Shown here: positions 151 to 25,633 of the stretch, one piece after another
Layout of the letters: each line of letters begins with the position of its first letter
Numbering within the stretch: the stretch's first letter is position 1
Virus record (IMG/VR): IMGVR_UViG_3300044267_003210
Coordinates: 1-26,441 of that record
Length of the DNA: 26,441 bases
Reading direction: 5' to 3' (one strand)
From: a virus
Taxonomy: Duplodnaviria; Caudoviricetes
The notes under the pieces: generated by a model
What the model was told of the DNA's origin: nothing
Seen by the model: the letters and a program-made list of their open reading frames with translations, nothing else
Database searches by the model: none
Program-made: the position numbers and the translations under genes

Positions 151-522
151 ATGTTTGGAAGAGATGCAGAACGCATGATGGACATGTGGGTAGATTTACT
201 CAATGAAATTGAGAGAATTCCATCCAAATCACGACCATTTATGCAGAAGCGTAAAGAGATTGGTAGTGTAGAAGACCGTGACACTGAGTTAGTTCTCAGT
301 GCAGACTTACCCGGAATTGAGAAGGAAGACATCGAACTAAAAGTTGATAGTCACAGTATAGCTTTCTCAGCTAAGACTGAAGAAAGAAACTATGATTATG
401 GACAAAGTTTTGATTTTGAACTCAACCCAGAAGAAGTCAAAGCTACATTTGTCAATGGAGTCTTAGACGTAGTCGTAAAGAAATCCGAAGGAACACAAGG
501 TAAAACTATAAAGATAGAATGA
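151..522 (+). CDS. hsp20: Small heat shock protein (Hsp20/alpha-crystallin family), archaeal type
   Basis: Alpha-crystallin motifs ADLPGIEKEDIEL and KATFVNGVLDV, plus C-terminal IxI motif (IKIE). GGAGG RBS lies just upstream. Confidence 0.92.
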   Translation: MFGRDAERMMDMWVDLLNEIERIPSKSRPFMQKRKEIGSVEDRDTELVLSADLPGIEKEDIELKVDSHSIAFSAKTEERNYDYGQSFDFELNPEEVKATFVNGVLDVVVKKSEGTQGKTIKIE

Positions 523-1190
523 GTAGCTATGATGATTGGATTCAATCGCCAAGGAGTCAACGAATATGGTTAGTAGATTCAATGAAGGCGTTGGGTCAAT
601 TTGCTTTCATAGCACCAATCCATAGAGTCAAACACTGGAATCCTTCAACGAAACGTAGGAATAAATGTTGGGCAAAGGAAGGTGAATGTGTCTTTTGTAA
701 GAACGGCACACCTAAAATAAATGAATTCACCTACGGCATATATGTATCCGCAGAAAAAACCATAAAATATCTGACGCTTACAATAGCCTCACACACTAAT
801 GCCCAGCGTTTATTTACTACAATAATTGAGAATGGTATTAACCCTACTGATTTAGTTTTTGAATTTCAAAAAGGGAAAGTAAAGACTACTTTAGGTAGAG
901 AAGCCAATGGGTATTTATTATCCCCAACCGAGGAAGACCCCTTTGTAGCTGAGAAGTTTAGACCAAGCTTAACAAGCAGTGAAGAACAATCCTACACATG
1001 GGTAGTTCCCGAAGAGATAGTAGAATACCTTAAGGATAAAAATGGAGACCCTATAACTATGATAGATTTATACTTGGTAATGAAAGAACAATTCCCTGCA
1101 ATTTCAGACAAAGAACTAAAGAAATATGCAGTGAAACTTTGTGAACACAATGTATTAAACCTAAACAATGCGAGGCAGAAATGGATATAA
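519..1190 (+). CDS. Hypothetical Zn-binding protein, possible T4 gp32-like ssDNA-binding protein
   Basis: H...C-x6-C-x2-C cluster (KHWNPSTKRRNKCWAKEGECVFC) followed by a beta-rich region. It sits in the replication module and has an ATGA overlap with hsp20. Confidence 0.45.
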   Translation: MSSYDDWIQSPRSQRIWLVDSMKALGQFAFIAPIHRVKHWNPSTKRRNKCWAKEGECVFCKNGTPKINEFTYGIYVSAEKTIKYLTLTIASHTNAQRLFTTIIENGINPTDLVFEFQKGKVKTTLGREANGYLLSPTEEDPFVAEKFRPSLTSSEEQSYTWVVPEEIVEYLKDKNGDPITMIDLYLVMKEQFPAISDKELKKYAVKLCEHNVLNLNNARQKWI

Positions 1191-1282
1191 TAGAATATAT
1201 AACAATAGTTTTTATATTAGATGGACCAATCTTAGGATTGTTCTATCTTTTATATAGGAAGTGTGTAAATGAAAAAATTTGA
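1181..1282 (+). CDS. 33-aa single-pass membrane microprotein (not in ORF track)
   Basis: MDIIEYITIVFILDGPILGLFYLLYRKCVNEKI*. GAGG RBS at 1172-1175. Hydrophobic core followed by RK. Overlaps both neighbours and fills the apparent gap. Confidence 0.55.
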   Translation: MDIIEYITIVFILDGPILGLFYLLYRKCVNEKI

Positions 1283-2753
1283 ATTACATGATTTATTAAG
1301 ATATTTTCATAACGCAAAGAAACCCGATGGAACTCTTTTCCCTATACTGGGAGAGGATGCTTTAGCCTTAACCACTTCACTATCTTACTTGTTAGAAGAC
1401 ACTAATTTTTGTATTAAAGCTTATAGTGGAACTGGAAAAACTGTGCTAATGGAAGCCATAGGTAATCTTTTACCTGAAGAATATATCTATACAGTAGAGC
1501 ATATGTCTGAGACAGCTATTTGGTATGATACTGAAAAAATAAACAATGCACGTTTTGTATTTATACCTGAAGCTCAAAAGATACCTGAAGGTGTTATGGA
1601 AATAATTAAGACGTGGGCTGATGGAAGAACCAGCGAAAGGAAGGTTACCGATGTAACAAGGAAATTACCTACCTATCAATGGTTACACCCTAAGTATGTA
1701 TTAATGGCAGTCGCAGTAGAGAACGATAAAGGTTCAGCTATGTTTGATGCTGAATTGGAACGTAGGTGTATGATTATGCACACTAACCCCACAGTTAAAC
1801 AAACTGAGTTAGTGGTAAAGCATAAGCTAATGAATTCGGCACTACCTAAAAAAACTATGTCATCAATGTCTGATAAAGAAATAGCAGAATTAAAGGAACA
1901 CGTAACTAAGGCTTTAAGAGAAAGGGATGAAGATGATGCTACGGTAATTAAAAACCCCTGTGCCCCTTTCCTTTTTGAAGCGATACCAAGTGCGTTCCCT
2001 GTCTCACGTTCTAAGGTTCAATACCTACTAAGACTTATAAACGCTATTGCTAGATTTTATCCTGATGAAATAATTAGGACTAAACATGATGGAATAACCT
2101 ATGGTTTGGTTTCGCCTAAACACAACTGGCTTGGACTGAGAATATATCTCAACTCCTTTGTTGAGGAATGTTTACATATGCCAAGTCACGGAACAGACAT
2201 ATTAAAACTGTTTCCTGAAACGAGACTAGATAAGTTTGGGTTCGCAGATAGTGAGACAGTGAAGATGTCTGAAGGTGAACTGAAGAAAGCAGCGAAAGCT
2301 GCGGGTTTACCTTTTACTAAACTGAGACCTGTCTTAGCGGGTCTTTTAATGACAGGGTTCTTGGAAGTAGATGATGAAGGTGGTAAGAAACTTTACTATA
2401 AGAGTCCATTGATTAATGAACCTGTGTCTAAAATAAATTGGAGTGAGTTAATTGAAGAAACAAAAGAGTTTATACGAGAAAACTGGCCTAAAGTGGCTGA
2501 TGAATACATTAGGCGCAGTTGTAGCAGTATCAAAATTGTTGACCCGTTTAGCGGGGACAACATTGAACTGGGTGAGAGAGCAAAGACAGCGATAGAGGTC
2601 AGTGATGCTGATTACCCCAGCGTCTTTAAAACAGCCAAAGACGCAAAGTGCAGAAACCATGCACATTTTCTATTAAATGCAGAAGGAGATTATACAGATG
2701 AAGAAAGTGAAGCAGTCAGAAAGTTTTACGAAGAAAGTGAAACTACCGATTAA
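1269..2753 (+). CDS. AAA+ P-loop ATPase, putative replicative helicase (MCM/MoxR-like), with probable C-terminal winged helix
   Basis: Walker A AYSGTGKT (1419-1442), Walker B-like FVFIPE, Arg-finger-like ELERRC, sensor-like FPVSRSK. Located near PolB and primase. Confidence 0.65.
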   Translation: MKKFELHDLLRYFHNAKKPDGTLFPILGEDALALTTSLSYLLEDTNFCIKAYSGTGKTVLMEAIGNLLPEEYIYTVEHMSETAIWYDTEKINNARFVFIPEAQKIPEGVMEIIKTWADGRTSERKVTDVTRKLPTYQWLHPKYVLMAVAVENDKGSAMFDAELERRCMIMHTNPTVKQTELVVKHKLMNSALPKKTMSSMSDKEIAELKEHVTKALRERDEDDATVIKNPCAPFLFEAIPSAFPVSRSKVQYLLRLINAIARFYPDEIIRTKHDGITYGLVSPKHNWLGLRIYLNSFVEECLHMPSHGTDILKLFPETRLDKFGFADSETVKMSEGELKKAAKAAGLPFTKLRPVLAGLLMTGFLEVDDEGGKKLYYKSPLINEPVSKINWSELIEETKEFIRENWPKVADEYIRRSCSSIKIVDPFSGDNIELGERAKTAIEVSDADYPSVFKTAKDAKCRNHAHFLLNAEGDYTDEESEAVRKFYEESETTD

Positions 2754-3015
2754 AGACGAACAATTTGCTGTTGTGAGTGAAATGTCAGGTGGGTCACGTA
2801 TGACAGCCCTCTGTGAAGATGGTAAAACGAGAATGGTAAGAATTGGTGGTAAATTTAAAAGGAGAATGTGGGTTAGAGAACGAGACCTCATCCTTATTAA
2901 ACCTTGGCCTGTGCAAGGAGATAGGAAAGCAGACTTAGTTCATAGATACCTACCAAATGAGAGAAACTGGATTCTCAGAAAAGATATACTACCAGAGGAG
3001 TTACAAATATGGTAA
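2698..3015 (+). CDS. eif1a: Archaeal translation initiation factor aIF-1A
   Basis: OB-fold signature LP..EQFAVVSEMSGGSRMTALCEDGKTRMVRIGGKFKRRMWVRERDLILIKPW..Q..KADLVHRY. GGAGA RBS at 2685-2689 favours ATG 2698 over 2677. Confidence 0.93.
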   Translation: MKKVKQSESFTKKVKLPIKDEQFAVVSEMSGGSRMTALCEDGKTRMVRIGGKFKRRMWVRERDLILIKPWPVQGDRKADLVHRYLPNERNWILRKDILPEELQIW

Positions 3016-3329
3016 GTGGAATAGAAGCTACCTATATGGATTTTACTCGCAAAACTGCGAAATATCCTAAGCGTAGAGAAAAAGAATACCTAATGATAGG
3101 TTTAATGAATGAAGCAGGAGAAGTCGGTGGAGCTTTTAAGAAAGAAATAAGAGACCACATAGATAATACCGACCTTATTATAGATGAGATGGGTGATGTC
3201 TTATGGTATCTCACACGTCTGTGTGATGTATATGATATTAAGATATCTGAACTCATGATTAATAATATAGATAAACTTGTCGGAAGAATGACACCTGAAC
3301 AAAAGAAAGAGTATAGAGAAAATGTATGA
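3009..3329 (+). CDS. mazG: MazG-like NTP pyrophosphohydrolase
   Basis: GLMNEAGEV...DEMGDVLWY all-alpha NTP-PPase motifs (ExxE...ExxD). Confidence 0.88.
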   Translation: MVSGIEATYMDFTRKTAKYPKRREKEYLMIGLMNEAGEVGGAFKKEIRDHIDNTDLIIDEMGDVLWYLTRLCDVYDIKISELMINNIDKLVGRMTPEQKKEYRENV

Positions 3330-3622
3330 CCATTATAAAGAAACTAACAGTTACTACAGATAATGAAAGAAAACAATGGATTGAAATGCTGAAACTGGCC
3401 AGTGACTATCATTATGATATGTCTGGTCAGTTCGAACCTGAGATTAAAACCCCTAATAAAGATAGTAAAGATGAACAGGTAGCTCAAATACATAGAGCGT
3501 GGGGTAGAGCTATACAAGAAGCGGCTGAACTCATTAAAGTTTGGGAAATAGAAGAGAATGATGATATTAAAACCCCAAGTGATACTAAACTAGTATACGA
3601 CCAACTAAAGGATAAAGAATGA
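3326..3622 (+). CDS. Hypothetical protein (98 aa)
   Basis: ATGA overlaps on both sides indicate translational coupling. No recognisable motif. Confidence 0.7.
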   Translation: MTIIKKLTVTTDNERKQWIEMLKLASDYHYDMSGQFEPEIKTPNKDSKDEQVAQIHRAWGRAIQEAAELIKVWEIEENDDIKTPSDTKLVYDQLKDKE

Positions 3623-5850
3623 AAGTTCCACTTATAGCAAGTATAAACAAACGCACAATAGATTTAAAAACTAAAAAATTGAAGGTCAAGATGTATAGAA
3701 ATGGACAAGCTGAGGCTGTAGAGTCTCCATACACTCCATACTTCTATACTGAGGACAAAATGGGGGAGACAAAAAAGTTGATTGCCTCAGATGAGACAGT
3801 CCAACTGAAAAAACACCTCTATATACCCGGTAAGGACCACATTCCGAGCCACGCACTCTTTGATGGTGGAAGGGAAACATTACTCGAAAGGTTATGTATA
3901 GAACATCCTAAGTTCTTTGCAGACTACCCTAACGACAAAGATGTAAAATGCCTTGTGTTCGATATAGAAACACACTCCCCCGATGGTACTTTTCCTTTTG
4001 GAGAAAGATACCCTATCGTTGCCATTGGCATTGTAACTTCCACCGGAGAGCGCAAAGTGTTCCTTTGGGACAATGAGAAAGAAGATGATAGTAAATTACT
4101 ATGGGACTTCGCTAATTATGTACAGGACTATGACCCTGACATTATTGCGGGGTGGAATCTTGTGGGGTATGATATTCCACAAATACTCCACAGGGTCCGT
4201 TATAATCATATAAACGAAGACCAATATAAAAAACACTTGAACAGAGATGGTTCAAGCTGGGGGTATGAACCTCCTAAAGATAATAGAGAACTAAAGATGA
4301 ACGCTGGTGGTCGCATAGTTTTAGACCTGCTACGGTGGGCCCGATTGGATTATTCATTATCAGGCTTACCACGTGGACTCAAACAGGTATCTCAGGCATT
4401 TGGCCTTGAACCGATTGAGCTCGACTTTGCAGAGAAAAACCTTCTCGATTACCCCCTACATGAGATAGAAGACTACGTTCTGTCAGATGTGGACTGTACG
4501 ATGTTTATGTATAACCACTACTTTCCACAAATACAATACGTAGCCGAGGTTCTATGTGTACCACTGGCCACCTATGTTAACGCCCCCAGTAGCTATATTA
4601 CGAAAATATTGCAGGGGAGGAGCTTATTCGAGCAGGGCATAGTGGCGCTTAATAGAAATAAAGAGAGACATCCACAAATATTTAGGTTTGACAAAGGCAA
4701 CTATCAAGCTGCACACATTGAACTATATAGACAAGGTTATGAAGCTGAGAACTATAAAGTAGATTTCAGTTCGTATTACCCATCTATAGCTATGGCTCTC
4801 AACTTAGGACCTGATACCACCAAAATTGTAGGTTATGAGGAATATAGTCCAGACATAGAGTTTAAGGATGGTATTCTTTATGTGCCTGATAACAAAGTCA
4901 ACAAGCGTTTAAAGGTTAAGATAGACCAACAGAACAAAAGTTCATTATATAATATGTGTAGTGTATTTAAAGAGATGCGTAAACCTTATAAGCTAGGTAA
5001 AACGAAAGAAGATAAGAGCAAGTCCGATGCTCTTAAAATAATGGTGAACACGTTTTATGGTGCAAACGCTAATCCTTACGTTAGCTATGGTGATATGGGG
5101 GTGGGTATCACTATCACAGCTATTGCCCGTTGGTTACTCCTATCGGGTGTCGACATCATCCGTTCTAGGTATGGAAAGGATGCTGTGGTTTATGTACACA
5201 CTGATGGGATTAATACTAATGTGGATGTTGATGTCGAGTGGTTAACTGGTAGGCTGAGACAACTACTTAAATATCACATACCTTTTAGTGAAGCTAAAAA
5301 TATATCTATGGATAAAGATATATTTAAGGAAGGTGTATGGATTCAGGTTGGTAATTATATATTACGTAACTTGGATGGTAGTGTTACAAAGCATGGAAGC
5401 ACCTTTAAATCAAAGAGCCGTTCTAGATTCTATAATAAGGTATTAGATAAACTATCTGACGCTCGATTAAATAATACCGTTACAAATTCATTTGTAGATA
5501 AATTATATGATTTAGATGAATATATCTTAGAAGATTTTATAATGCGTAGGTCCACCAACAGAGGATATGATGATTATAAATCTGAAACAGACCTAACTGT
5601 ACAATTAATGAATCTTGGAAAACAAATAGGAATGGAACCAGCAGAAGGAACAACATACTTTTACGCTAAAACCAAGGAAGGTTATAGACTTAAGGAACAA
5701 ATAAAATCTGTAGATGAAATAGACATTACATACTATTGGGATACGATATCTAACCTACTTATTAAATTTGGATTAAAAGAGTACGTTAAGAAAAAGCCCC
5801 CCTTAACTATGTTAGATAAAAAACAACAATCACTTGCAGAGTGGATATAA
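3619..5850 (+). CDS. polB: Family B DNA polymerase with 3'-5' exonuclease
   Basis: ExoI FDIET, ExoII GWNLVGYD, ExoIII YVLSD. Polymerase motif A DFSSYYPS, motif B KIMVNTFYG, motif C YVHTDG. C-terminal PIP-box-like QQSLAEWI. Confidence 0.95.
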   Translation: MKVPLIASINKRTIDLKTKKLKVKMYRNGQAEAVESPYTPYFYTEDKMGETKKLIASDETVQLKKHLYIPGKDHIPSHALFDGGRETLLERLCIEHPKFFADYPNDKDVKCLVFDIETHSPDGTFPFGERYPIVAIGIVTSTGERKVFLWDNEKEDDSKLLWDFANYVQDYDPDIIAGWNLVGYDIPQILHRVRYNHINEDQYKKHLNRDGSSWGYEPPKDNRELKMNAGGRIVLDLLRWARLDYSLSGLPRGLKQVSQAFGLEPIELDFAEKNLLDYPLHEIEDYVLSDVDCTMFMYNHYFPQIQYVAEVLCVPLATYVNAPSSYITKILQGRSLFEQGIVALNRNKERHPQIFRFDKGNYQAAHIELYRQGYEAENYKVDFSSYYPSIAMALNLGPDTTKIVGYEEYSPDIEFKDGILYVPDNKVNKRLKVKIDQQNKSSLYNMCSVFKEMRKPYKLGKTKEDKSKSDALKIMVNTFYGANANPYVSYGDMGVGITITAIARWLLLSGVDIIRSRYGKDAVVYVHTDGINTNVDVDVEWLTGRLRQLLKYHIPFSEAKNISMDKDIFKEGVWIQVGNYILRNLDGSVTKHGSTFKSKSRSRFYNKVLDKLSDARLNNTVTNSFVDKLYDLDEYILEDFIMRRSTNRGYDDYKSETDLTVQLMNLGKQIGMEPAEGTTYFYAKTKEGYRLKEQIKSVDEIDITYYWDTISNLLIKFGLKEYVKKKPPLTMLDKKQQSLAEWI

Positions 5851-5854
5851 TGCC

Positions 5855-5870
5855 ACAAACTTTATATACT
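5855..5870 (+). promoter_or_regulatory. Archaeal-type promoter (BRE-like purines + TATA box)
   Basis: ACAAAC-TTTATATA (TATA at 5861-5868) in the first real intergenic gap after polB. A similar AACTTT(T)TATA occurs upstream of nrdJ. Confidence 0.6.
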
Positions 5871-5890
5871 AAGATAAAATATATTATTAA

Positions 5891-5928
5891 TAGGACAGTA
5901 CGTGTACTGCTCCTACCCCTTCGGGTAG
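5891..5928 (+). promoter_or_regulatory. Two overlapping stem-loops in the predicted 5' leader
   Basis: TAGGACAGTA-CGTG-TACTG(C)TCCTA (5891-5915) and CTACCC-CTTC-GGGTAG (5913-5928). They form a GC-rich patch in an AT-rich gap. Confidence 0.55.
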
Positions 5929-5935
5929 TGATAAA

Positions 5936-6130
5936 ATGGATGAAAAGGAAATTAAACCGTTGTCGGCATTTTTGTCGGACGCAGAAGTCAAAGTGGTTTG
6001 GCGTGAAGAAGAAAGAACAAAGGTCGGAAGAGGAATGATAACGAACGACGATGAGAATTTTGTATACCTTACTGGAGATAAGGGAACCGTTATTGTTAAT
6101 AAAAGAGATATTATAGCTATAAAACAATAG
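5936..6130 (+). CDS. Small Sm/LSm-like (SH3-type beta-barrel) protein
   Basis: 64 aa with an N-terminal helix, then VKVVW...GRGMITNDDENFVYL...TVIVNKRDIIAI, matching the Sm1/Sm2 pattern. Confidence 0.6.
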   Translation: MDEKEIKPLSAFLSDAEVKVVWREEERTKVGRGMITNDDENFVYLTGDKGTVIVNKRDIIAIKQ

Positions 6131-6139
6131 AGGTAATAA

Positions 6140-7642
6140 ATGTCAAAAAGCAAGAATGATATGAATACAGTAGGCGAATACGCTGAAGATGTAGAATGGG
6201 ATAGACCTTTAAAAGGTAAGTTACGTATTATGCCAGTATCAGATAGCCCTTGGGCTCCTACTGGTTTCGGAACTAACACGAAGAATATAGGGTGTATATT
6301 GTATGATGAAGGACACCATATAGGTTATGCTGGGTGTCAGAACCCCCGTTATGGTAAATGGAAAACTCCATGGCCTTTAAATCAAAAAGATAAAAAGGCT
6401 ACTTTCGAACTCTTACCTATTATGTATATGGGACAAGAAAGGTTTGGAGAAAAATCATTCCCTATTTGGGTAAAGGATTTTAAACCAGATTTAGTTATAG
6501 GACATCTTGATTTCCAAATGTTTAAACATATCACAGATATGAAATCCCCCCAGATGATACAATTACCCATGTATAACCCAGAGACTGGTAAATTATTAGG
6601 GCGTAAAGAAAGAATGGAAATGATGAACACTGCCTTTAAACAAGTACAAAAGGGCATGCCATGGAAATTTGGTTGTATTATACCTTATGATGGAGAACCC
6701 TCTATCCCTCAATGGCAACAACAAATGGATAATATAGATTATGGGGTAGCCATGTCACGTTATGGTCAAATAGGATTAGAGAAAGACTTTAATAAAAAAA
6801 CAACATACATCCCACATGGAGTTGATACTGATTTATTCAAACCTATTATGAAACCTATGTATGGTAATAACCCTAAACCTAATGCATTCATTGTAGGATG
6901 TGTAGCAAGAAATCAACACCGTAAAAACCTACCACGCTTAGTTAAAGGTTTTGCTCAGTTCGTACAGAAAAATAATCTGAGCCCAAAAGAAGCCAAACTA
7001 ATAATGCATATGGATTGGAACGATGCTATGGGATGGAAGTTTCCTAATTTTATAGAAAACTATATATCTAAAGATTATTTAATGGACCCCTTAATGGGTT
7101 TCTTGGATGGAGGAGAAGCAGTCACTGAAAAAGAGATGGCCAACCTTTATAATTGTATGGATGTATTCGTTTTACCTACGGCTGGTGAAGGTTTTGGTAT
7201 ACCTACATTAGAAGCTATGTCTTGTGGAGTTCCTATATGTGTTACAAACTACACCACAGGTTGGGAACTAATTAAATCAGAAGATGCTGAGAACGAAGAC
7301 ATACCTATGTTTCCATTAGGAGGACATTTTAATGATGCAGGACCAAATGGCAGAGACCACTTAGAAGAAGAAGATATATGCGAGAGAGGTATATTACTAC
7401 CATATAAAGATATGTGGTGGGACACTCCTGCTCGAGCAGCACCACAAAGAGCTATATGTAGTGAAAAAGCTATATGTGAAGCTTTAGATTATTACTATCA
7501 CAACCCTGATAAACGTATAGCTGCTGGTAAAGCAGGAAGAAAACATGCTAAAAAATATTATAGTTGGGATGTAATAGGTAAGAAATGGATTAACTGGGCT
7601 AATAATATAGCTCAGGAAATGAAAGGAAATAAGAAAAAATGA
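6140..7642 (+). CDS. GT-B fold glycosyltransferase (GT4 family)
   Basis: SDSPWAPTGFG N-terminal loop, IPHGVDTDLFKP, ARNQHRKN, and DVFVLPTAGEGFGIPTLEAMSCGVP (E-x7-E). GAGGT RBS. Confidence 0.92.
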   Translation: MSKSKNDMNTVGEYAEDVEWDRPLKGKLRIMPVSDSPWAPTGFGTNTKNIGCILYDEGHHIGYAGCQNPRYGKWKTPWPLNQKDKKATFELLPIMYMGQERFGEKSFPIWVKDFKPDLVIGHLDFQMFKHITDMKSPQMIQLPMYNPETGKLLGRKERMEMMNTAFKQVQKGMPWKFGCIIPYDGEPSIPQWQQQMDNIDYGVAMSRYGQIGLEKDFNKKTTYIPHGVDTDLFKPIMKPMYGNNPKPNAFIVGCVARNQHRKNLPRLVKGFAQFVQKNNLSPKEAKLIMHMDWNDAMGWKFPNFIENYISKDYLMDPLMGFLDGGEAVTEKEMANLYNCMDVFVLPTAGEGFGIPTLEAMSCGVPICVTNYTTGWELIKSEDAENEDIPMFPLGGHFNDAGPNGRDHLEEEDICERGILLPYKDMWWDTPARAAPQRAICSEKAICEALDYYYHNPDKRIAAGKAGRKHAKKYYSWDVIGKKWINWANNIAQEMKGNKKK

Positions 7643-12583: not shown

Positions 12584-12859
12584 ATGGAATTTGAAAAAGA
12601 CATTACAGGTTATGGACGCAAAATGGGTCGTGACGCAGGACTTAATTCTGAGGGTAGAATAGATTCTGTCGTTAAACTTGGTGGTGGAGAGTTCGAAGGT
12701 ATGCAACCAGCTGGAACTGTAGCAGTCAGAACTATGAACCCCGGTGGTTCAGAAACATCTGGTGGTGGTGCAAATGCTGGTGACTACGCTCCTTCCTATG
12801 GTAGAGATGATGGTGTCACTGGAAATCCACGTGGACCCCCAAACATGAACACCCCTTAG
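12584..12859 (+). CDS. Gly-rich, probably disordered hypothetical protein (91 aa)
   Basis: Starts 2 nt after the nrdJ stop with a GGTG RBS. Its stop codon overlaps the stop of the converging gene. Confidence 0.65.
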   Translation: MEFEKDITGYGRKMGRDAGLNSEGRIDSVVKLGGGEFEGMQPAGTVAVRTMNPGGSETSGGGANAGDYAPSYGRDDGVTGNPRGPPNMNTP

Positions 12860-13908
12860 CTATCTTGTTGTTTAATATATTCAGCGAGAGTCGGTGGTTT
12901 TTTATTTATATTTATTCCCACAGAGTAACCTCCCGGAGTAAAAGCAATCTTTTTACCACGAATCCTGTAGTTGCCTGAATATTCTTGTTGGTCCGTGCTA
13001 ATGTTTACTACATCATTTTCAGCTAAATAAACACCTTCTAGAGTGTCTATACCATATTCATATTGAGCTTCTAAATTAGCTCTAAATATTTTTTGAGCAA
13101 AGTCCCTACAAGCAGCAGGAGATTCAAGGTTTTTATTATCAACTTCTAAGTAACTTACATCCAAAGCCTTACGAGCTCCCTCGTGAGTGAAAGTACCCTT
13201 TACTTTATTTTTTCCCGTTACTATAATCATAGTGGGTATTTTTTTATTAATAATTTTTAAACTTGTAATATTATCCTTACTGTTAAATTTATATGTTATA
13301 TCAGAGGTTTTTAAATCACTTTCTAACTCTATAACCAGCTGAGATTTTTTACCGTCATCTATTACCTTAAGTATATTAGGTCTCGGTAACTCTCCTGAAT
13401 CATCTACGGCTCTTTTTAATAATTCTTTTATTATATCTAATACTGCGTAAGTTCCTCTTAAAGGAGGAGCAGAAGAACTAATTAAAGGAGAAGTGTCTCC
13501 TATACAATCGGTTCCTATTTTAGAATCCAACTTAACCATTTTTATAGCTTTTCTAATAGCATTACCAGCAGTAAGACCATCAAGATTATCCTCCTCAGTT
13601 AAAGCTAATATAGCTTGGTCTGGACTACCTCCTAAGACCAAATATCCTAAAACGTCTTGAGCCATTATCCTTATAAAATTAAATCCTTTTTTCACTCTTT
13701 TAACATAACCCCTAAACAAAGGAGTACCACTCTCTTCGTTGATATACATAACAACTTCTTTGTTCCATAATTTCATTTCATTACCATAGCGTAAAGGAAT
13801 CTTAAAATCCATAGAAGCAGCACGTAAGCCTCCTGTATTAGTTAAAGCTCCATCTAAAAAGGTTACTTCTTTACCATCTATAGTAATTTTAGGTATAAGT
13901 CTGTTCAT
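12856..13908 (-). CDS. Tail tip/baseplate hub protein (gp27/Mu gp44/P2 gpD-like)
   Basis: ITIDG..., LFRGYV...IMAQDVLGYL, and C-terminal ENDVVNI...SGNYRIRGKKIAFTPGGYSVGININK. Last gene of the tail operon. Confidence 0.7.
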   Translation of the reverse strand: MNRLIPKITIDGKEVTFLDGALTNTGGLRAASMDFKIPLRYGNEMKLWNKEVVMYINEESGTPLFRGYVKRVKKGFNFIRIMAQDVLGYLVLGGSPDQAILALTEEDNLDGLTAGNAIRKAIKMVKLDSKIGTDCIGDTSPLISSSAPPLRGTYAVLDIIKELLKRAVDDSGELPRPNILKVIDDGKKSQLVIELESDLKTSDITYKFNSKDNITSLKIINKKIPTMIIVTGKNKVKGTFTHEGARKALDVSYLEVDNKNLESPAACRDFAQKIFRANLEAQYEYGIDTLEGVYLAENDVVNISTDQQEYSGNYRIRGKKIAFTPGGYSVGININKKPPTLAEYIKQQDS

Positions 13909-16900
13909 CAGCTATTCCTCCTAGTGGGAAAATATCTGTCATTAATTTACCCGAAGTATCTAATAACGCAATACCATCAACACCTAAAGTAAAAGTGTAG
14001 TTAACTATTCTACGCGGTCCTCCTACCCCAGCTGTTTCATTAATATTTTGAACTACTCCAAACAGTCTTAAAAATGTACCATCCTTTTGTGGCTCATCCC
14101 AATATACCCTACAATCCTGTGCTTGAATCTTACGGAGAGTGTGTAAATGTCCATAAAGAGTGGAAGGGCCTTGGTTATCAAAAGCTTGTGAAGTGGCAAC
14201 ACTTTCATCACCCAACGCCACACTAGTAAAACCAACCTCCTGCAACTGAACCCCTGTTTTAGTAATAATAACCTTTCCTTTATGAGTAACTGCTTTATAA
14301 TAAGTACCAGCTCTACCCACATTAATACTACTAGTAATAGCTAGAGAATTTAAGTTGTAAGCTGAATCATCTATTACTCTAACTACAGCACTTGAACTTT
14401 GATTAGCATCAAAAATATTCCATAATTCTGGATGTATATAATCACTCCCTAATTTCATCGTACCAGACAAACCTATTTTTACAGCATATTTTTGTTGATT
14501 ACGCCATGAAGCTTCTATACTTTCTCCAATTCTGTCTCCTCTCGAATCGTCAGGGTATAATGTATATTGGTTAGGGAAACCATCTGATGGATATTCACTA
14601 TCAACTCCTAAAAGTTTATGTGCAGTTCCACCACTAGGTAAATAGACTTTACTGAATCCTGTAAAGGCATTATACATATTAATACGCCTTACAACAAATT
14701 CAATATCCCCACTTAAACTTTGACAACTATCTCTCAAAGATGCCGAACTATCTCCTATATGGAAGTATACAGTATCGTCACCATCCCATCCATCATCACC
14801 ATCTTTAGTTAACCAAAAGGCATTTTTATCATAACCAGCTGGTGAAGTAATTTGAGCAATATATTTAAAAGAACCTATATCAACAGCATTTAGAGCAGTT
14901 GTGTAGGTTTTAAATTGAGAAGATATGTCTCCACTAGAAGTTCCAGTAATTACGAAATAATCACCAAACTCAGTTCCAGTTTGCACTGAACCAGAGACAC
15001 TTCCTGACATTATTCCAAAATCATAATCATTACTACTCGTAACATGACCAATCTTTCCTCCAGCCAAATCTTCTAAAGTTACGCTATTCCAATTATCAAT
15101 CATATCATAAGAAATAATACCACTCTTAGATAAACTACAAGAAACTTCTGAATATTTATCATTAGTGGTATCTCTATACTCTTTACTGGATGCTGTTCCG
15201 TCAGTAAATTCTACAGGTTCCCAATAAGCATTCATTAATCTATTACCTGAATTTTCAACCTTTAACAAAGAAACAGAATCGATACCCCATGGAGGGGCAG
15301 TGGAAATAGATGATTGTAAATAAGGAGCATAATTAGACATATTAAAAAACAATTTGTCAGTCTTAGAATCAAGAAGAACTATTAAATATTCCTGCAAGGG
15401 AGTAGTCCTGTCATTATTCTCCATATCTCTCCATGTGTGGTCATTAGTGCCGCTTAGACTTATTTGACCACTGCTAGAGTTTTGTAAATTTTGATTAGTA
15501 TAGTCCTTACTATTTGAATCAGCGTTTGTAGCACCATCATCTAATATTTTAGTAGGATTACCACGGGCATCACTTGCACTAGCATCTGTAGTACTGCCGG
15601 GGTTTTTATTCCATGAACGTACAGGAGTTATCCTAAACACATTAGGCATATGTAATGGATTCTTATAACTGTTAGCCCCTGCTTTACCTTGACTTCTTAC
15701 TAAATAATATTGGTCCATAAATCTACCAAAATCATCTAGAGGAAATTGGTCCTGAACATATGTGGTAGCATCATTAGAAGACCATGCAGCAGAAGTGTAA
15801 TACCACGGGTTATAGGTACTTCCTTTGTTGTAAGTTAAACCATAAGGATTTAACATGTAAGTGTAAGCTAAAGATTTAGTTGAAGTAGTGGTTTCTGGAT
15901 AAGTAAATTGCCAATAGTTGTGAACGTGTGTATCAGTACCATGGAAAGTATAACCACCGGATTTAATAACTGCTCCACTATTATGAGAACCAGATGCGTT
16001 AATAAACCCACGCGTTACATTAAGTAAAGCTGTAGAAGAAACGCCATCATAATATATCATTTCTCCACTATTAGAAGCTTCTGCGGCTATAGATGCCATC
16101 CCAGAAGCAGGAAAACCAGTAGCGTCTGTTACAGGTATTTCTGTCGCAGTCGCGTTAACTCCAGCACTTAAAGTACTAGAAGCACCAGAAGTAGCCCACC
16201 CATTAACTGGAGAGAACCACATCTTACCTGTATCGTAAAAATAAGAAGATATAGAAGCATTAGAAGCAGCAGGTCGACTCTGAGAAAAATCAGCTGTAAT
16301 CAAACGGTCTGCATCATTAGCTCTTTTTATAGGGTCACCTGCCGTTACATAACACACAGGTAAACCACGACCAGTAATATTACCATTCCCATATCTTGAA
16401 CTGGCTGTAAATAAACCAATTTTTAATTTATTCAAAGCTGCATTTTCGGTGAACGACGTCTTACCAGACGCACCCATATATTTAGGATTTTTATAAATAA
16501 CTTCTAAAACACGAGCAACACTAGCTCCTGATATTAAAGGACCGTTTGTAGCTGAACCACTTTTTAATACATCTTTAAGTCCTGTGTTACCAGTCAAACC
16601 TGTTCCAGATAATATACAAGAAAGAGTTTGAACCACATGTTCCTCACCTCCAGATGGAGCTGACCAAGAAGTATTAGTCATAGTACCTGTACCATCAATT
16701 ATAGGTAAAGCTAATACACAAGTTATGTCTACTTCAATAGGACTAAAATAAGCTAATTCAGTATCAGTAAGAGTAGGCATAATACAAATATATAATTTAC
16801 CGGGCCCACTATCTTCAAACACACTATTGTCTATACCTGCTTTGGCGTCTGTATTATTAACACGTGTTACTCCTGTTACGGCAGAATCAACCATAGGTAA

Positions 16901-17224
16901 CGAAGCTATATTGGTATCTTGAGAGAAAGGTACTAAATCAGCTTCACTACTATTAGCACTATAATATCGAGATACAAATCCATTAGAATTAACTGTTTGT
17001 ATAACAGGATAAAAAGTACCTGTAGCATTATAAGTGTGTGTAAGTGTGGTGCCTGTGATATTTTCTGTACTTGTAAACCATTGATAATTTGCTTCTGTTT
17101 TTTTATTAGATTCACCATCGTCCCAATCCACATACATAGCACGCACATTATTATCTTTAAATGTAAAGGTTCCCGTAACCTCGGTATTAACTGTTCCAGT
17201 TGTAGTATTCCACGTTAAACTCAT
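13889..17224 (-). CDS. Large virion/tail protein with N-terminal PKD-like domain and possible C-terminal Dit-like domain
   Basis: YVDWDDG...THTYNATGTFYP (PKD). S/T/G/N-rich. C-terminal RLFGVVQNINET...VNYTFTL pattern, directly upstream of the hub gene. Confidence 0.65.
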   Translation of the reverse strand: MSLTWNTTTGTVNTEVTGTFTFKDNNVRAMYVDWDDGESNKKTEANYQWFTSTENITGTTLTHTYNATGTFYPVIQTVNSNGFVSRYYSANSSEADLVPFSQDTNIASLPMVDSAVTGVTRVNNTDAKAGIDNSVFEDSGPGKLYICIMPTLTDTELAYFSPIEVDITCVLALPIIDGTGTMTNTSWSAPSGGEEHVVQTLSCILSGTGLTGNTGLKDVLKSGSATNGPLISGASVARVLEVIYKNPKYMGASGKTSFTENAALNKLKIGLFTASSRYGNGNITGRGLPVCYVTAGDPIKRANDADRLITADFSQSRPAASNASISSYFYDTGKMWFSPVNGWATSGASSTLSAGVNATATEIPVTDATGFPASGMASIAAEASNSGEMIYYDGVSSTALLNVTRGFINASGSHNSGAVIKSGGYTFHGTDTHVHNYWQFTYPETTTSTKSLAYTYMLNPYGLTYNKGSTYNPWYYTSAAWSSNDATTYVQDQFPLDDFGRFMDQYYLVRSQGKAGANSYKNPLHMPNVFRITPVRSWNKNPGSTTDASASDARGNPTKILDDGATNADSNSKDYTNQNLQNSSSGQISLSGTNDHTWRDMENNDRTTPLQEYLIVLLDSKTDKLFFNMSNYAPYLQSSISTAPPWGIDSVSLLKVENSGNRLMNAYWEPVEFTDGTASSKEYRDTTNDKYSEVSCSLSKSGIISYDMIDNWNSVTLEDLAGGKIGHVTSSNDYDFGIMSGSVSGSVQTGTEFGDYFVITGTSSGDISSQFKTYTTALNAVDIGSFKYIAQITSPAGYDKNAFWLTKDGDDGWDGDDTVYFHIGDSSASLRDSCQSLSGDIEFVVRRINMYNAFTGFSKVYLPSGGTAHKLLGVDSEYPSDGFPNQYTLYPDDSRGDRIGESIEASWRNQQKYAVKIGLSGTMKLGSDYIHPELWNIFDANQSSSAVVRVIDDSAYNLNSLAITSSINVGRAGTYYKAVTHKGKVIITKTGVQLQEVGFTSVALGDESVATSQAFDNQGPSTLYGHLHTLRKIQAQDCRVYWDEPQKDGTFLRLFGVVQNINETAGVGGPRRIVNYTFTLGVDGIALLDTSGKLMTDIFPLGGIADEQTYT

Positions 17225-17418
17225 TCATCCTCCTCTACAAACCATGTATATTTTCCTTCTTCGTCAGTGGGTACAACATGAGCACAATAACCCCTTGTTT
17301 TTGTATGATGAGAGTTTAAACATGTCTGTTCTTTTATTTCTTTACCTTCTTCATCTACTCCTGTTACACGCAAAGTAGGGCAAACATTCGATTCAATAAT
17401 CTGGGTTGGCTGGCTCAT
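17221..17418 (-). CDS. Small hypothetical protein with Cys/His residues
   Basis: ATGA overlaps at both ends if the start is 17418 (MSQPTQ...). GGAGG RBS. Confidence 0.65.
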   Translation of the reverse strand: MSQPTQIIESNVCPTLRVTGVDEEGKEIKEQTCLNSHHTKTRGYCAHVVPTDEEGKYTWFVEEDE

Positions 17419-20400
17419 ATTGTAGCCCTCCATGAAGCTTCATTAGTAGAAGCTTGTGTTTTAGTTGATTTACCTCTAATATTATGATAATCACATACAA
17501 ACACCTTAGCATTATGACTAATCAACTTAGTTCCAGATAAATCTAATTCGTTAGCAGTATTATGTATATATTCTTGGCTGTTTGGGACTCCTATTATTTC
17601 ATGATTATAAAATACCAACTCTTCTATGTGGCCATTGAAAGTTTGTCCTTGGAATGGCATACCTATAGCCTTTACAGTTAGCACAACAGAAGCACCTCCA
17701 CCACCACCCATCTTAGCATCAGCAAAGGTTAATGTATCATCCACAGCATATCCAGAAGCTCCCGATAATATAGTAAATGTGGGCGTACCATCACTTGCTA
17801 CTACTATTTTAAACTTAGTATCGGCAATTACCCCTGAACCATCCGTCGATGTAGGCGTTACTCCACTACCTCCTCCATCATAGGTATCAGGTGTTCTACT
17901 TCCATCAGCAGCACCATTAGAGGTATAAGACCAAATAGCACTACTAGCTTGGTTTCTTGCAGTGCCTATAAATAAATCAGTATCGGTAGTAGGTAAAGCT
18001 GGCATTGTATCTGCATAAGCTTCTAATACCCCGTCAACATATAATTTAGCATCAGGTCCTGTGGCGCTTCCACTATTATAAGTATAAATAATATTAACCG
18101 CACTACCATCATTTGGTATAGGTGTAGAAGATGTTAAGAAAGTTCCTGCATGACATACCTGCACATAAGGCGTACTACTTCCACTAATTTGCATAGATAA
18201 ACCAGTTCGCACTGGAGAACCATTATTAGCATCAACTCCTTTAGAAAATATAAATTGCCATTGTTGGCTTGTACCGCTTACTGGAGTACAGTGCGCCATA
18301 ACGCTGAATTTTTGAGTTTCCGCAGCAGAACCAAACGGAAATGAAAAATTACCTCCACTAAGTAAAGTGGCATATTGTCCTACAGTATCCGGACTAAAGG
18401 TAGGTGCCCATCCTGAAATACCTGTTAAATCACAAGTTAAAGCACTTTCATAACCATTAGCTGCTACAATACCCAAAGGTTGATTTTCTATCCCAGCAGC
18501 ATTAGCTAAAGTGGTGCTAGTTCCACTTACTACATCATAAACATAATGAGAAGTTACAAAACTTTTCATATTCTGGTTAGGAGGTTCTTCATTAAGAGGC
18601 ATCCACAATCTAGCTCCATGGTATTTATTAGCAATACTACCAGTCCCTACTATCATATACCTATACCACACATCCTCTTCTTGTTCATCCCATGTAAATT
18701 TAACAGCATTTAAGTCTTCAGTAGTTAAATCATAAAGATTCACATCTGATTCCAATAAATCAAAAGCAGGTTTTACATCTAAATTTCCTATTACTGGAGG
18801 TAAATCTATATATTGCCAGTAAAAACGAGGAGTTCTATATATATCGCTTGATACAGGACTATATAAATCTACTCCACTATTGTTCATTTTTCCATCCATT
18901 CTACAAAATAGAAGGAAACTCTGTTCATCAGTAATAGTCTGAGTATCAATAGGACCACTTAAATCAAAATCAACATAATTACCCGAAAGAACTCCTTTCA
19001 CATCTACCTCTCCACCTGTAGAAGTATCTATGTCATAAGGGCCATATCCCCAATCTTGCCCTAACTCAAACACACTAGCTTCCTCATCAAATTCAAAATC
19101 CCATACATTATGAGACATTGCGGAGCGCCCTACGGTACCTGTAGCAGTAGTATCATAACTGTATATATTTTCATTGAAAGTTGTCCCTGTGTGAGCAGTT
19201 GTTGGAGTAGTATCAACTTTAAAAATACTTGAATAGCTGCGGGAAGCTGGTAATTGATTATTACTTGCACCATATGACGCGTTCGTAGGATAAGTCATAG
19301 TTACCCAGTATTTATAAGGAGAAATATATAATTCGTTCCAAAACTTTCTTTGCATATATGGTTTACCACCAGTAGACGTAGTTACTTTTTTATTAAAGGT
19401 AATGGTATTACCTACTATAGAGCCTGTTTCTGCTAATTTTATTCCTGTTAAACGATGATTATTATTGTCTGAAGCATGAGCTCTATAAATAATATACTCA
19501 TCATCTGAGAATTCATTAAATATAGAAGGGTCAGCTACTTGGATTTGATTGTCTGCCAATCCGTTACCAGCTCTGGGAACCCCTGTAATTTTAACAGACG
19601 CACCTGCGTGCTCACGTTTACCCCAATTACCATAATCTACAGCAGTATCATTCCCCGCACTACCAGATACACTCACATAAGCAAATCCTTTTTGAGTAAA
19701 AGCATCTGTAGACATAAAACTATTAGAGCCTGAAGCAATAGTCATTTTATTACCAGCTACAGTACCCGCATCTGTTATCTCATATGACGCACCAGATAAA
19801 TTATTATAACTACCAACCATCTCACCATACTGTACTTCTACAGCACCACTAATATAATGAGCTCCCATAAATTGGTGACCTAATTTATTAACATCATTAG
19901 TTACAACGTTATCAGCCATACTGATAAAACCTCCATTGCTAAAATTAGTCCAGAAAGGATAATTAAAATAATTTAATCCATTAAAATCAAGAGTAGAAAA
20001 ATCCCCAAAAAACATATAATTCGCATTATTACCACTTTTATCATCCCATCCCATTATTACTTGATTGGATGGATGTAACGTTCGATAACTGGCTGCATTC
20101 GTTCCCCCTGCATTAGTTCCTGAAACTGCGTTAAAAGAAATTAAACGTCGATGATTTTCGTTCCCACTACCAGAACCTGTAATATTGTATAAAGGAGATT
20201 CAACACTAGAAGGGGCAATAGTCCACGGAGAAACTCTTCCATTAGTTGCAGTATGGTTGTTGATTTTAGGGGTAAAATCTTTAATTGTAATGTTATCTAT
20301 ATATAACTCAGTTTCCTGTGTAGAACCATCAGGAGAAACATCTCCATAATAATAATAATCGTCATCTTGACCATTAAGTATTTCTGTTTCACGCCTTGTG

Positions 20401-23027: not shown

Positions 23028-25633
23028 GCAATACCTCCGAAAGAATCAATTCCTATTGACACATCTTTTAACACTACTCTACCACCTAATAAATCTTGGG
23101 TTTGACCAGTATTTAACATTTGCCCTGAATTACCGGGCATAAAGAGTTCTGGTCCTTGTTCTCCAACCAAATAAGGCCGACCTCCTCCCATGCTACCACC
23201 ACCAGCCATAGGTTGGACATACCCACCAGACTGAAGAACTCCTCCCATCTTTAGTAAATCATATCCGAGCCATGCAGCCCCTAGTGCCATTCCAATAGGA
23301 CCCAAAGCAGCCAATCCAGCTCTTGCTCCTATTTTAGGTACAAAAGCTCTCATAGCCTTTTTAGTTCCTACTTTCATCATACCCCCTGAAGGGCCTCTAA
23401 TCATATTTTTACCAACATATTCATATCCTTTCTTTAAAGTGCCGCCTGAGGTTACACCTCGACTAGCTAATAAACCGGTTGCTAATCCAGCACTTGTGGC
23501 ACCACTAGCAACAGCAGCTCCTGCACCAGTGACCATAGTATTAACAGCCCCTATCTTCATTAAGCCCACACCCATAGCACGTAATAATTGAGGGATTCCC
23601 ATAAAAGATAATGCTTTCCAAGTAGCAGCAAAAATAAGTAACCCTTGTACTAATTTACTATCACTATTCAATAATCTATCAATAATCCTCAATGGTACTA
23701 ATATAACTTGCCAAAGACGTTGTACTGTAGGTAATAAATCCTTTATACCCATAATTAAATTCTTTACAATTTCTACAATTTCTATCAAATATTCAGTTGA
23801 CATATCTTGTAATTGTTGACCAAATTCTGTAAGTCTTTGTTCACCATTCTCAGTTACTATAATCATGTCTTTAAACCCTTGAACTGACTCTACAACAGCC
23901 TTATGGAAACCATTAATAAATTCCGTTCCTTCATAAGCTGCATCTCTCAATGCAAAAATAGAGAAAATATTAGTCTTTAATATTTGTAATTGTGCACCCA
24001 ATGATTCGTTCTGAATTCGAACCATTTCATCTAATTGACCACCTGCGTTAGTGGTATCTTCAACAGCCTGAGTAAACTCATCAGAAGCTTGAACTAAGTG
24101 GATAAACGCAGTAGCACCACGCACATTCAAGTCTTGTATCAGAGTAGTTAATAACTCTGTATTTGATGCAGTTTCTGGACCAACTGCGGCTGCAAACTGA
24201 GAAGCTATCTCAGTTAATTGTAACATTTCACCTTCCGCGTTGAGAATTTCTACTCCCATTTTACGGAATCCTACTTCAGCATCCATAGCACTTTCAGCAA
24301 ATTCAGCCAATGCTTGTCTTAAACCCCTACCAGCTATACCAGCCTCTAAAGCTCTATTAGTCAATATCTGTAGAGCCCCTAACAATTGGTCAATAGATTG
24401 CCCTGTAGAGGTAAAGAAAGGTAGAGCAAACTTAACAGCGCTTGATAAATCTTGATATTCAATAAGAGATTTCTGAATAGCATAAGCAAATTTATCTGTT
24501 ATTAGTGCTGCTTGGTCCATTTCCATACCAAATCCAAACAATGTCTGTGCAGTTAATTTAGAGATAGTATTGTGGTCTCCCTGTACCGCCATGGATAATT
24601 TTAAGGTGTGGGGTAGAACTTCTAAAGCTTCATTGGCTTCTAAACCAGCCGATGCTAGTTGGTAAAGACCAGTAGCACCATTTTGAACAGCAATACCAAA
24701 ATTATTACCAAATTCAACAATGCTGTTTCCTACTTCAAAGAGATTATCGTTAGTCAAATTAAAAACAGAATTAGCATTTAAAAGTTCTCGTTCAAATTCA
24801 ACTAAATCTTGGGTGTTTTGATTTAATTTGTAACCGACTGCTGTTAAAATAGCAACACTGGTTCTTAAAGCACTGTTAAATTGACTGCGTACTGCATTAG
24901 TTACGTCAATTACACCTTCTGCCAACTCACTTACATTCTTAGACATAAAATCATATTCCGCAGTAAGTTGTTTAGAAAGTTGAATTCGTTCCTTTATGTC
25001 TCCTAACAGCTCTTTTTGAGTTAAAAGTTGGTCTTCAGCATTTTCAGCTTCTTTTACTGCAAGATTGTATGCATCTTTTTGTGGCTTTGTTTTCCTTTCC
25101 ATCAGTGCAGCTTCTTCATATAAGTTTTGAATTCGCTTATTTTCCTGACCAATATACATTTGTAAATGAGACACAACAGCTTGTCTTTCTGCTTCATTCA
25201 TTTTATGTAAATTACCAGCTAACTGAGTAACATTATGGAAAGATTCCCCTTTCTTCATACCCCGAGTTAATTTATCACCTAAATCTTTACTCAATATTGA
25301 CTGTATTTTAGAATAGTTACTAGATAAAGCAGAAGCAGATTGAGACATACTTCCTTTGGTTTCAGCGTTTATTTTGGACAAAGTGGTCTTCATGCGTGCT
25401 ACAATCTGATTATTCATTTTATCAGTTAAACTAAGTGCTTTTTTGTTAGATTTATCCATTTCCGCGGCATATTTCCCTGAGATATCACCACGTCCTCTGG
25501 CTAATTCTATCCTTTTTTGTATATTTGTGATAGCTCTAGCTAATACTCCACCAGTCTTATTTAAAGCCTGTGGACTAGGAACGGCTAAACCAATCGCGAC
25601 ACGCGCTGCAAAAACTTGTCCTGCAAAACCCAT
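23024..25633 (-). CDS. Tail tape measure protein (TP901/PhageMin_Tail core)
   Basis: GLYQLASAGL...GIAGRGLRQAL...MGVEILNAEGEMLQL core, hydrophobic segments, and C-terminal GRPYLVGEQGPELFMP motif. Confidence 0.93.
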   Translation of the reverse strand: MGFAGQVFAARVAIGLAVPSPQALNKTGGVLARAITNIQKRIELARGRGDISGKYAAEMDKSNKKALSLTDKMNNQIVARMKTTLSKINAETKGSMSQSASALSSNYSKIQSILSKDLGDKLTRGMKKGESFHNVTQLAGNLHKMNEAERQAVVSHLQMYIGQENKRIQNLYEEAALMERKTKPQKDAYNLAVKEAENAEDQLLTQKELLGDIKERIQLSKQLTAEYDFMSKNVSELAEGVIDVTNAVRSQFNSALRTSVAILTAVGYKLNQNTQDLVEFERELLNANSVFNLTNDNLFEVGNSIVEFGNNFGIAVQNGATGLYQLASAGLEANEALEVLPHTLKLSMAVQGDHNTISKLTAQTLFGFGMEMDQAALITDKFAYAIQKSLIEYQDLSSAVKFALPFFTSTGQSIDQLLGALQILTNRALEAGIAGRGLRQALAEFAESAMDAEVGFRKMGVEILNAEGEMLQLTEIASQFAAAVGPETASNTELLTTLIQDLNVRGATAFIHLVQASDEFTQAVEDTTNAGGQLDEMVRIQNESLGAQLQILKTNIFSIFALRDAAYEGTEFINGFHKAVVESVQGFKDMIIVTENGEQRLTEFGQQLQDMSTEYLIEIVEIVKNLIMGIKDLLPTVQRLWQVILVPLRIIDRLLNSDSKLVQGLLIFAATWKALSFMGIPQLLRAMGVGLMKIGAVNTMVTGAGAAVASGATSAGLATGLLASRGVTSGGTLKKGYEYVGKNMIRGPSGGMMKVGTKKAMRAFVPKIGARAGLAALGPIGMALGAAWLGYDLLKMGGVLQSGGYVQPMAGGGSMGGGRPYLVGEQGPELFMPGNSGQMLNTGQTQDLLGGRVVLKDVSIGIDSFGGIA

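Follow-up and report, generated by a model that had tools for sequence, protein, structure and literature searches.

Can a tailed virus of archaea carry a translation initiation factor of its own, and what would such a factor do for it? The question is raised by a short gene in the IMG/VR virus record IMGVR_UViG_3300044267_003210 (Duplodnaviria; Caudoviricetes), a linear sequence of 26,441 bp with a CheckV completeness of 38%, the whole of which was analysed here and is called the window below. An earlier note, made from the letters of the sequence, had reported an intact gene for archaeal translation initiation factor 1A (aIF-1A) at positions 2698-3015 of the plus strand and had taken it to be viral. 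As far as sequence comparison can tell, the viral aIF-1A is a real, conserved, virus-encoded translation factor, of a kind that is already known and in an archaeal setting that is notable.

A complete archaeal-type aIF-1A gene

The open reading frame (ORF) runs from an ATG at 2698 to a TAA at 3013-3015, which gives 105 codons before the stop, and the coordinates given earlier are right. Its product matches the Pfam family PF01176 (eIF-1a) with 62.3 bits (cut-off 30.2; E 3.4e-17) over profile positions 2-64 of 64, and the NCBIfam subfamily model NF003084 with 107.4 bits against a cut-off of 91. The closest sequences in the PDB are the aIF1A proteins of M. jannaschii and P. abyssi (E ~4e-24). 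PHROGs holds no family for the protein, the ESM Atlas queried with it returned generic aIF1A clusters only, and the automatic annotation of JGI already labels these proteins 'translation initiation factor 1A'.

The AlphaFold2 model (pLDDT 83) is built of five strands and two helices, one short and one C-terminal, with the strands of the OB fold lying in residues 22-83 and the C-terminal helix in 86-94. Its top match in Foldseek is P. abyssi aIF1A (4mno; TM 0.81/0.89, rmsd 1.2 A over 89 columns, 44% identity), followed by chains of eukaryotic eIF1A from 43S/48S complexes. The chains of bacterial IF1 align with the model over 65-67 columns only; they lack the C-terminal helical part, which the model has after the OB barrel. 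Landmarks of the family are readily located in the sequence, namely a CEDGK loop at residues 39-43, RIGGK at 48-52, W58 and the C-terminal PEELQIW. From family models and predicted fold together, 2698-3015 is predicted to encode a complete archaeal-type aIF-1A.

The gene is embedded between its neighbours. Its first 56 nt (2698-2753) are also the last of the gene for a 494-aa P-loop (GTGKT) AAA+ protein (1269-2753, plus strand, stop at 2753), and this stretch is coding in two frames, giving the P-loop protein its acidic C-terminus and aIF-1A its basic N-terminal tail. At the other end, 7 nt (ATGGTAA) are shared with the start of a mazG gene, which encodes a MazG-like nucleotide pyrophosphohydrolase (3009-3329, plus strand). 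A Shine-Dalgarno (SD) core, AGGAG, lies within the P-loop gene at 2684-2688 on the same strand, 9 nt before the ATG, and the AAGGAGA-N-ATG 'MKK' start at 2698 is kept in 10/10 relatives examined; an in-frame ATG upstream, at 2677, is without SD sequence and found in only some relatives. We infer from the overlaps between neighbouring genes that the block is co-transcribed, and 'replication operon' is a fair wording for it.

The gene is part of a viral genome

A search of IMG/VR with the protein yielded nine contigs of 37-72 kb. In every one the order is orf223, P-loop gene, aIF1A, PolB, and MazG is present in eight of the nine. A search with the P-loop protein returned 28 loci, 27 of which extend past the gene, and aIF1A stands directly behind it in 27/27. 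Profile searches extended the survey: that with the aIF1A profile found 38 contigs, with the same block order in all 12 whose flanks were checked, and that with the P-loop profile found 44 loci on 43 contigs, with aIF1A in 37 of the 42 informative ones. The union of these two profile searches comprises 40 distinct contigs that carry aIF-1A. In addition, 219 protein clusters match the aIF-1A protein.

Independent sequencing runs cross the gene as well. Two Logan contigs are identical to the window over 2562-3086 (run X2) and 2562-3089 (run X3), and a third, from run X8, covers 2432-3098 with 10 differences; the three are seawater runs that belong to three different studies, and each of the contigs spans the junctions on both sides of the gene. 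In 15 runs from marine or seawater samples, at least 0.74 of the sampled words of the stretch 1200-6200 are present.

A whole genome of this group is seen in the relative G083 (72.5 kb, CheckV 100%). Besides the large terminase subunit TerL, a portal, a tape measure and a capsid protein of HK97 type, it encodes PolB, ribonucleotide reductase (RNR), RecU, a ligase, a PolX thumb, a Cas4-like nuclease and two proteins that resemble the pair CobS/CobT. A search for tRNA genes in G083 found none, and among the 69 ORFs scanned there was no translation gene besides aIF-1A. A viral-type copy with 68% identity and the same SD sequence and start also lies on a 10.9-kb contig (NZMJ01000097.1, locus L011) binned in a 'Maricaulis sp.' metagenome-assembled genome, and this is probably a mis-binned archaeal-virus contig.

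Could the gene nevertheless be host DNA that a misassembly has joined to the virus, or has it been captured recently and neutrally? The window is a linear fragment of 38% completeness, and one related contig, IMGVR_UViG_3300037195_000659 (31.5 kb; loci L138 and L142), has two divergent P-loop/PolB blocks in opposite orientation, one with a divergent aIF1A and the other with a GIY-YIG ORF in its slot; two related viruses may have been merged in this assembly. Such an origin is nevertheless hardly credible for the gene of the window, given the shared gene order in 40 contigs, the bridged junctions, and a composition (GC 0.39, GC3 0.34) that falls in the range of the neighbouring genes. Furthermore, dN/dS is 0.067-0.377 in 40 of the 45 pairs among 10 viral copies, with synonymous sites near saturation (the remaining five pairs are saturated at these sites), values that indicate purifying selection, and the viral copies form one clade (see below). 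The aIF-1A belongs to the virus and is neither host DNA nor a chimera. The earlier note had argued likewise that a gene overlapping the ATPase and mazG genes inside a replication block is not flanking host DNA, and the misassembly or chimerism that it had named as a danger is contradicted by the three runs and the syntenic contigs.

Type of virus and the P-loop neighbour

The window contains a tail tape-measure gene (23024-25633, minus strand; 84.5 bits), which marks a tailed virus, and it is without head genes because it is a 38% fragment. With the terminase, portal and HK97-type major capsid protein of relatives, the available sequences support the view, already taken in the earlier note, that this is a tailed archaeal virus (Caudoviricetes). 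The pointers to an archaeal host are indirect: the archaeal type of the factor itself, the MCM-like fold predicted for the P-loop protein, and the GenBank virus homologs of this protein, which come from haloarchaeal tailed viruses only (40/40 records, ~20% identity) and are annotated as hypothetical proteins. The P-loop protein has no Pfam match and falls in phrog_12057, a family of unknown function. Its predicted fold (pLDDT 75) is nearest to the ATPase modules of MCM helicases (E 2e-9; TM ~0.4, and at most 0.55 on the target), and in the haloarchaeal virus HRTV-27 the gene of its homolog adjoins an archaeo-eukaryotic primase gene. The 494-aa protein may thus be a lead to a candidate family of viral replicative helicases.

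The MCM-like protein and family B polymerases are common to our virus group and the haloarchaeal tailed viruses (Hafunaviridae and relatives such as HRTV-27). The best match of the window's PolB in GenBank phages has at most 25% identity. The CobS/CobT-like genes of G083 recall those of marthaviruses (PMC7678222), a likeness that does not show relatedness to the reference genomes.

The fixed place of aIF-1A between the MCM-like ATPase and MazG/PolB, overlapping the genes on both sides, brings up the idea that the protein was re-used as an OB-fold RNA chaperone or single-strand binder serving the replication or transcription block, away from the ribosome. S1-like OB folds bind single strands in general, and the pI of 10.1 would suit such a role. 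However, a plain nucleic-acid binder would hardly account for the conservation of the a/eIF1A-specific C-terminal helix, the CxDG loop, W58 and the C-terminal LPEE motif. In HRTV-27, the one haloarchaeal tailed-virus locus that we read, the ATPase gene is followed by the primase gene, with no aIF-1A there, and tblastn against 50,697 GenBank phage and archaeal-virus records matched no aIF-1A. We therefore regard this alternative as very unlikely.

Evolution of the viral aIF-1A and its value as a host clue

An exhaustive search of 1.84 billion representatives returned 1,242 proteins at E <=1e-3. Among the matches listed, a single full-length representative (P0152, 63%) exceeds 60% identity to the window protein, as do four truncated or frameshifted fragments of the viral clade. 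Genome-encoded copies reach at most 48% identity in 79 genomes, a set obtained by a 'class' search around a record titled Nitrosotalea, with named genomes of Thermoplasmatota and Nitrososphaeria outside the comparison; in 18 named archaeal records the maximum is 47%. The only genome hit closer than these is the copy on the contig in the 'Maricaulis sp.' bin (68%). The record around which this search was made (L024, titled Nitrosotalea sp.) has an aIF1A that groups with ANME-1/Methanophagales records in both trees, and the search also returned records titled Methanobacteriota and Halobacteria; the title of L024 may be wrong.

A quick tree comprised 114 rows, made up of viral and named rows and of the 91 among 150 listed representatives that cover the domain. 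All 16 viral rows fall in one clade (SH-aLRT 99), which stands on a long stem. A more careful tree was restricted to 66 rows, 42 of the relevant clade and 24 others; three rows with long branches (P0293, P0234 and P0200) were left out of it, as were most of the remaining distant representatives. In this tree the viral rows lie on one side of a branch with support 95/73, recovered in 92% of bootstrap trees, and they are joined by 25 cell-like rows and P0153 in a group of 42 that is split from the other 24 rows (96/93). The phylogeny with cellular aIF-1A that had been proposed as a check thus shows the viral copies as one long-stemmed clade.

The 25 nearest cell-like proteins end in LPxE-D-[FY], which resembles the viral ...PEELNIW. 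Nine of them carry long acidic tails, and several others of the sister clade are tail-less. The nine (P0155, P0158, P0159, P0167, P0172, P0173, P0176, P0181 and P0206) are cell-like marine aIF1A proteins of 135-231 aa whose tails hold repeated D-rich LFG or DDDDIDSLFG motifs, and some of them look frameshifted. Reviews hold archaeal aIF1A to be without a long acidic C-terminal tail. When the ESM Atlas was queried with the tailed cell-like type, Thermoplasmatota was the commonest phylum of the nearest clusters, which is a lead and does not rest on named genomes. The nearest cell-like relatives may therefore be of Thermoplasmatota type.

Because the viral copies form a long-stemmed clade with at most 48% identity to any genome-encoded copy sampled, the gene is expected to mark the host only coarsely, to a broad archaeal group at best. 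The suggestion in the earlier note that it would be a good marker for host assignment is thus not supported as worded there.

We also considered, and dropped, a second capture as the origin of the divergent copy at L138, which has 41% identity to the window protein and 50-57% to cell-like proteins. In an approximately unbiased (AU) test, a single viral clade including L138 was not rejected (p 0.61), and the constrained tree was 5.4 log units better. Pairwise identities of aIF1A correlate with those of PolB, the ATPase and orf223 at 0.42-0.54 (Spearman), as compared with 0.76-0.80 among these three. MazG, which is also short, correlates similarly weakly (0.34-0.49), and a recombination signal in aIF1A is not separable from this.

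Conserved and altered residues

Of 20 columns that are at least 80% conserved in 90 cell-like representatives, 18 are kept by the viral majority. Every aligned viral copy has C39 and D41, and the viral CEDGK loop, between beta2 and beta3, corresponds to 41CEDGKI46 of P. abyssi. In that protein the loop and the C-terminal helix form the contact with aIF5B, and the C and D of the loop are strictly conserved across archaea (PMC9226500). W58 aligns with P. abyssi W60, which is placed at the edge of the P and A codons, in the A site (PMC7005279).

The earlier note had pointed to RIGGK in place of the usual RIPGK motif. The difference exists and is a real trait of the clade: among 30 viral copies, 26 have RIGGK and one RIGGR, two keep the proline and one has an arginine. 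We do not read it as a functional break, since the column varies in cells as well (proline in 63% of the 90 cell-like representatives) and two viral copies retain the proline.

A number of points weigh against the protein being an ordinary and indispensable aIF-1A. It misses the NCBIfam equivalog cut-offs (TIGR00523, 91.2 against 102.9; NF003082, 84.4 against 108) and falls below that of NF003086 as well (87.7 against 202). Two otherwise conserved columns are changed, G to N or R at residue 62 and L to I or V at residue 92. The viral clade stands on a long stem and, together with the missed equivalog cut-offs, this makes a changed function conceivable. The gene is missing from five of the 42 informative P-loop loci (L132, L136 and L140-L142), where its slot is taken by a 92-aa ORF, directly by MazG, or by a GIY-YIG ORF, and it therefore appears to be dispensable for some members of the virus group. 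The last of these occupants, at L140-L142, is a 151-aa ORF with a GIY-YIG domain, homing-endonuclease-like. The sole RNA run with part of the stretch (X20) is neutral as evidence: it gave 6 contigs, all at 3501-5957 and none on aIF-1A.

What the factor may do

Some of these points would suit a viral take-over tool, that is, an altered competitor in the 30S A site that changes the stringency of start-site selection or blocks host initiation and so favours viral cistrons, which are often SD-led and coupled. To the long stem and the two changed columns can be added the substitutions fixed in the viral clade (A24, V25, E28, M29, A37, G50, M57, I65, L80, L85, P86, R89, N103 and W105). The C-terminus is of interest here, too: the viral copies stop at ...PEELxIW, the LPEE-x-I-[WFY] motif they have in common with cell-like relatives, many of the nearest of which run on into long acidic tails. 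SD cores (GGAG or GAGG, 3-12 nt upstream) precede 10 of the 24 ORFs of the window, about tenfold over the 4.4% seen at random positions; the enrichment is real, and the statement of the earlier note that most viral genes have SD motifs went too far. However, keeping the aIF5B-contact loop and the 18 conserved columns is what would be expected of a working factor, whereas a blocker could do with less, and the lack of a tail is shared by several sister-clade proteins. A tool of this kind is, on balance, unlikely. A more specific version, which we hold to be unlikely as well, is that the tail-less, retuned aIF-1A of these ~70-kb marine archaeal viruses alters the small subunits of the host in such a way that polycistronic viral messages led by SD sequences are preferred at start-site selection and at subunit joining. 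If true, archaea would provide a case of a ribosome specificity factor made by a virus, and the protein would be a natural means of learning what aIF1A and its aIF5B contact do in vivo.

We favour, with some reserve, the reading that the virus-owned aIF-1A probably acts as a supplement to, or substitute for, the host factor on the host small ribosomal subunit. The viral protein would be produced along with the products of the replication genes and would occupy the A site of the 30S subunit, where it would assist in loading the aIF2-tRNA complex and afterwards cooperate with aIF5B when the subunits join. Initiation would thereby be sustained or raised while host synthesis of translation components falls. 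G50, N62, the NIW end and the lack of the acidic tail that the nearest cell-like relatives often have could represent a tuning to viral needs. Two observations from haloarchaea make such a helper role plausible. In H. volcanii, aIF1A is essential and two 67%-identical paralogs can replace each other (PMC3828320). During infection by HFTV1, most host translation genes drop, whereas aIF1, aIF5B and aIF1A are sustained (preprint 10.64898/2026.09.13.751334).

Other features of the window

The aIF-1A gene is part of a compact gene block on the plus strand (151-5850) that extends from HSP20 through the family B DNA polymerase. The block opens with the gene for the HSP20 small heat-shock protein (151-522), present in eight of the nine syntenic relatives, followed by the conserved 223-aa ORF called orf223 above (519-1190), which precedes the block in relatives too. 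Downstream of mazG lie a 98-aa ORF of unknown function (3326-3622), with a 4-nt overlap with each neighbour, and PolB (3619-5850). Beyond PolB, the window holds genes for a glycosyltransferase, a primase-like ORF and a class II ribonucleotide reductase, and from 12.9 kb on the minus strand is taken up by very large tail genes and the tape measure. The tail region at 12856-23027 (minus strand) includes ORFs of 350, 1111 and 1870 aa without family match. In the relative G083, a 1932-aa protein encoded at 64748-70546 has collagen triple-helix repeats (505 bits).

The gap after PolB (5851-5935) contains TTTATATA at 5861-5868 and a short GC-rich inverted repeat, CTACCC-CTTC-GGGTAG, directly before a 64-aa ORF, and this gap may be a transcript boundary. 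TTTAWATA, the archaeal TATA box, is not enriched (13 seen against 9.5 expected).

Relation to known systems and significance

The cellular aIF1A proteins (P. abyssi 4MNO, 5JB3 and 7ZAI; M. jannaschii 1JT8) belong to the same family as the viral copy and share its length, its fold (TM <=0.89), the CEDGK loop and the A-site Trp, at 44% and 40% identity, respectively. The viral copy differs in lying in a viral replication operon, in the clade-fixed RIGGK, REND/RERD and ...NIW end, and in its scores below the equivalog cut-offs. The cell-like aIF1A proteins of putative marine Thermoplasmatota type, which come from metagenomes and are the nearest group in the trees, have 43-52% identity; the viral copies differ from them in their long stem and in having no acidic tail. 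Another extra copy is HVO_A0637, the second aIF1A paralog of H. volcanii, which from its locus tag we take to lie on replicon pHV4. This paralog is diverged, and the functions of the pair are redundant and not identical (PMC3828320), but it is cellular, unlike the viral aIF-1A.

Among viruses, the top structural matches in BFVD are the eIF1A homologs of giant viruses (Klosneuvirus, Indivirus, Catovirus, Hyperionvirus, Marseillevirus LCMAC202 and CroV; TMq 0.65-0.80), and a protein of 'Virus NIOZ-UU159' annotated IF-1A is also matched, at 19% identity. Virus-encoded translation factors are also known from large phages. The giant-virus proteins are of eukaryotic type, 147-239 aa long and 21-31% identical to the viral aIF-1A. 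These viruses infect eukaryotes, have genomes of hundreds of kb and carry many translation genes, whereas here aIF-1A is the sole translation gene found in a tailed virus of ~70 kb.

For archaeal viruses, we found no report of aIF-1A in the literature; supplementary tables lay outside the search, and an earlier listing is therefore possible. Term searches within PMC5434244, PMC5474096, PMC8651126, 10.1101/2025.08.23.671958, PMC11706807, PMC10160649, PMC7678222 and PMC5332604 turned up no mention of it. The nearest mention is of a 'translation initiation factor IF1' among the translation genes of five archaeal proviruses (PMC13573593). Together with the absence of a match in the GenBank records, this agrees with the earlier statement that such factors are uncommon in archaeal viruses.

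What the finding means for this virus group follows from its economy. A lineage of tailed viruses of modest size, widespread in seawater, keeps one translation factor, with no other translation gene found. The retention of this single factor suggests that the supply or the properties of aIF1A limit viral protein synthesis in these hosts. For a virus group that is unclassified, the gene is also a rough pointer to the host, and the 30 aligned viral copies represent a compact natural set of variants that could indicate which surfaces of aIF1A matter.

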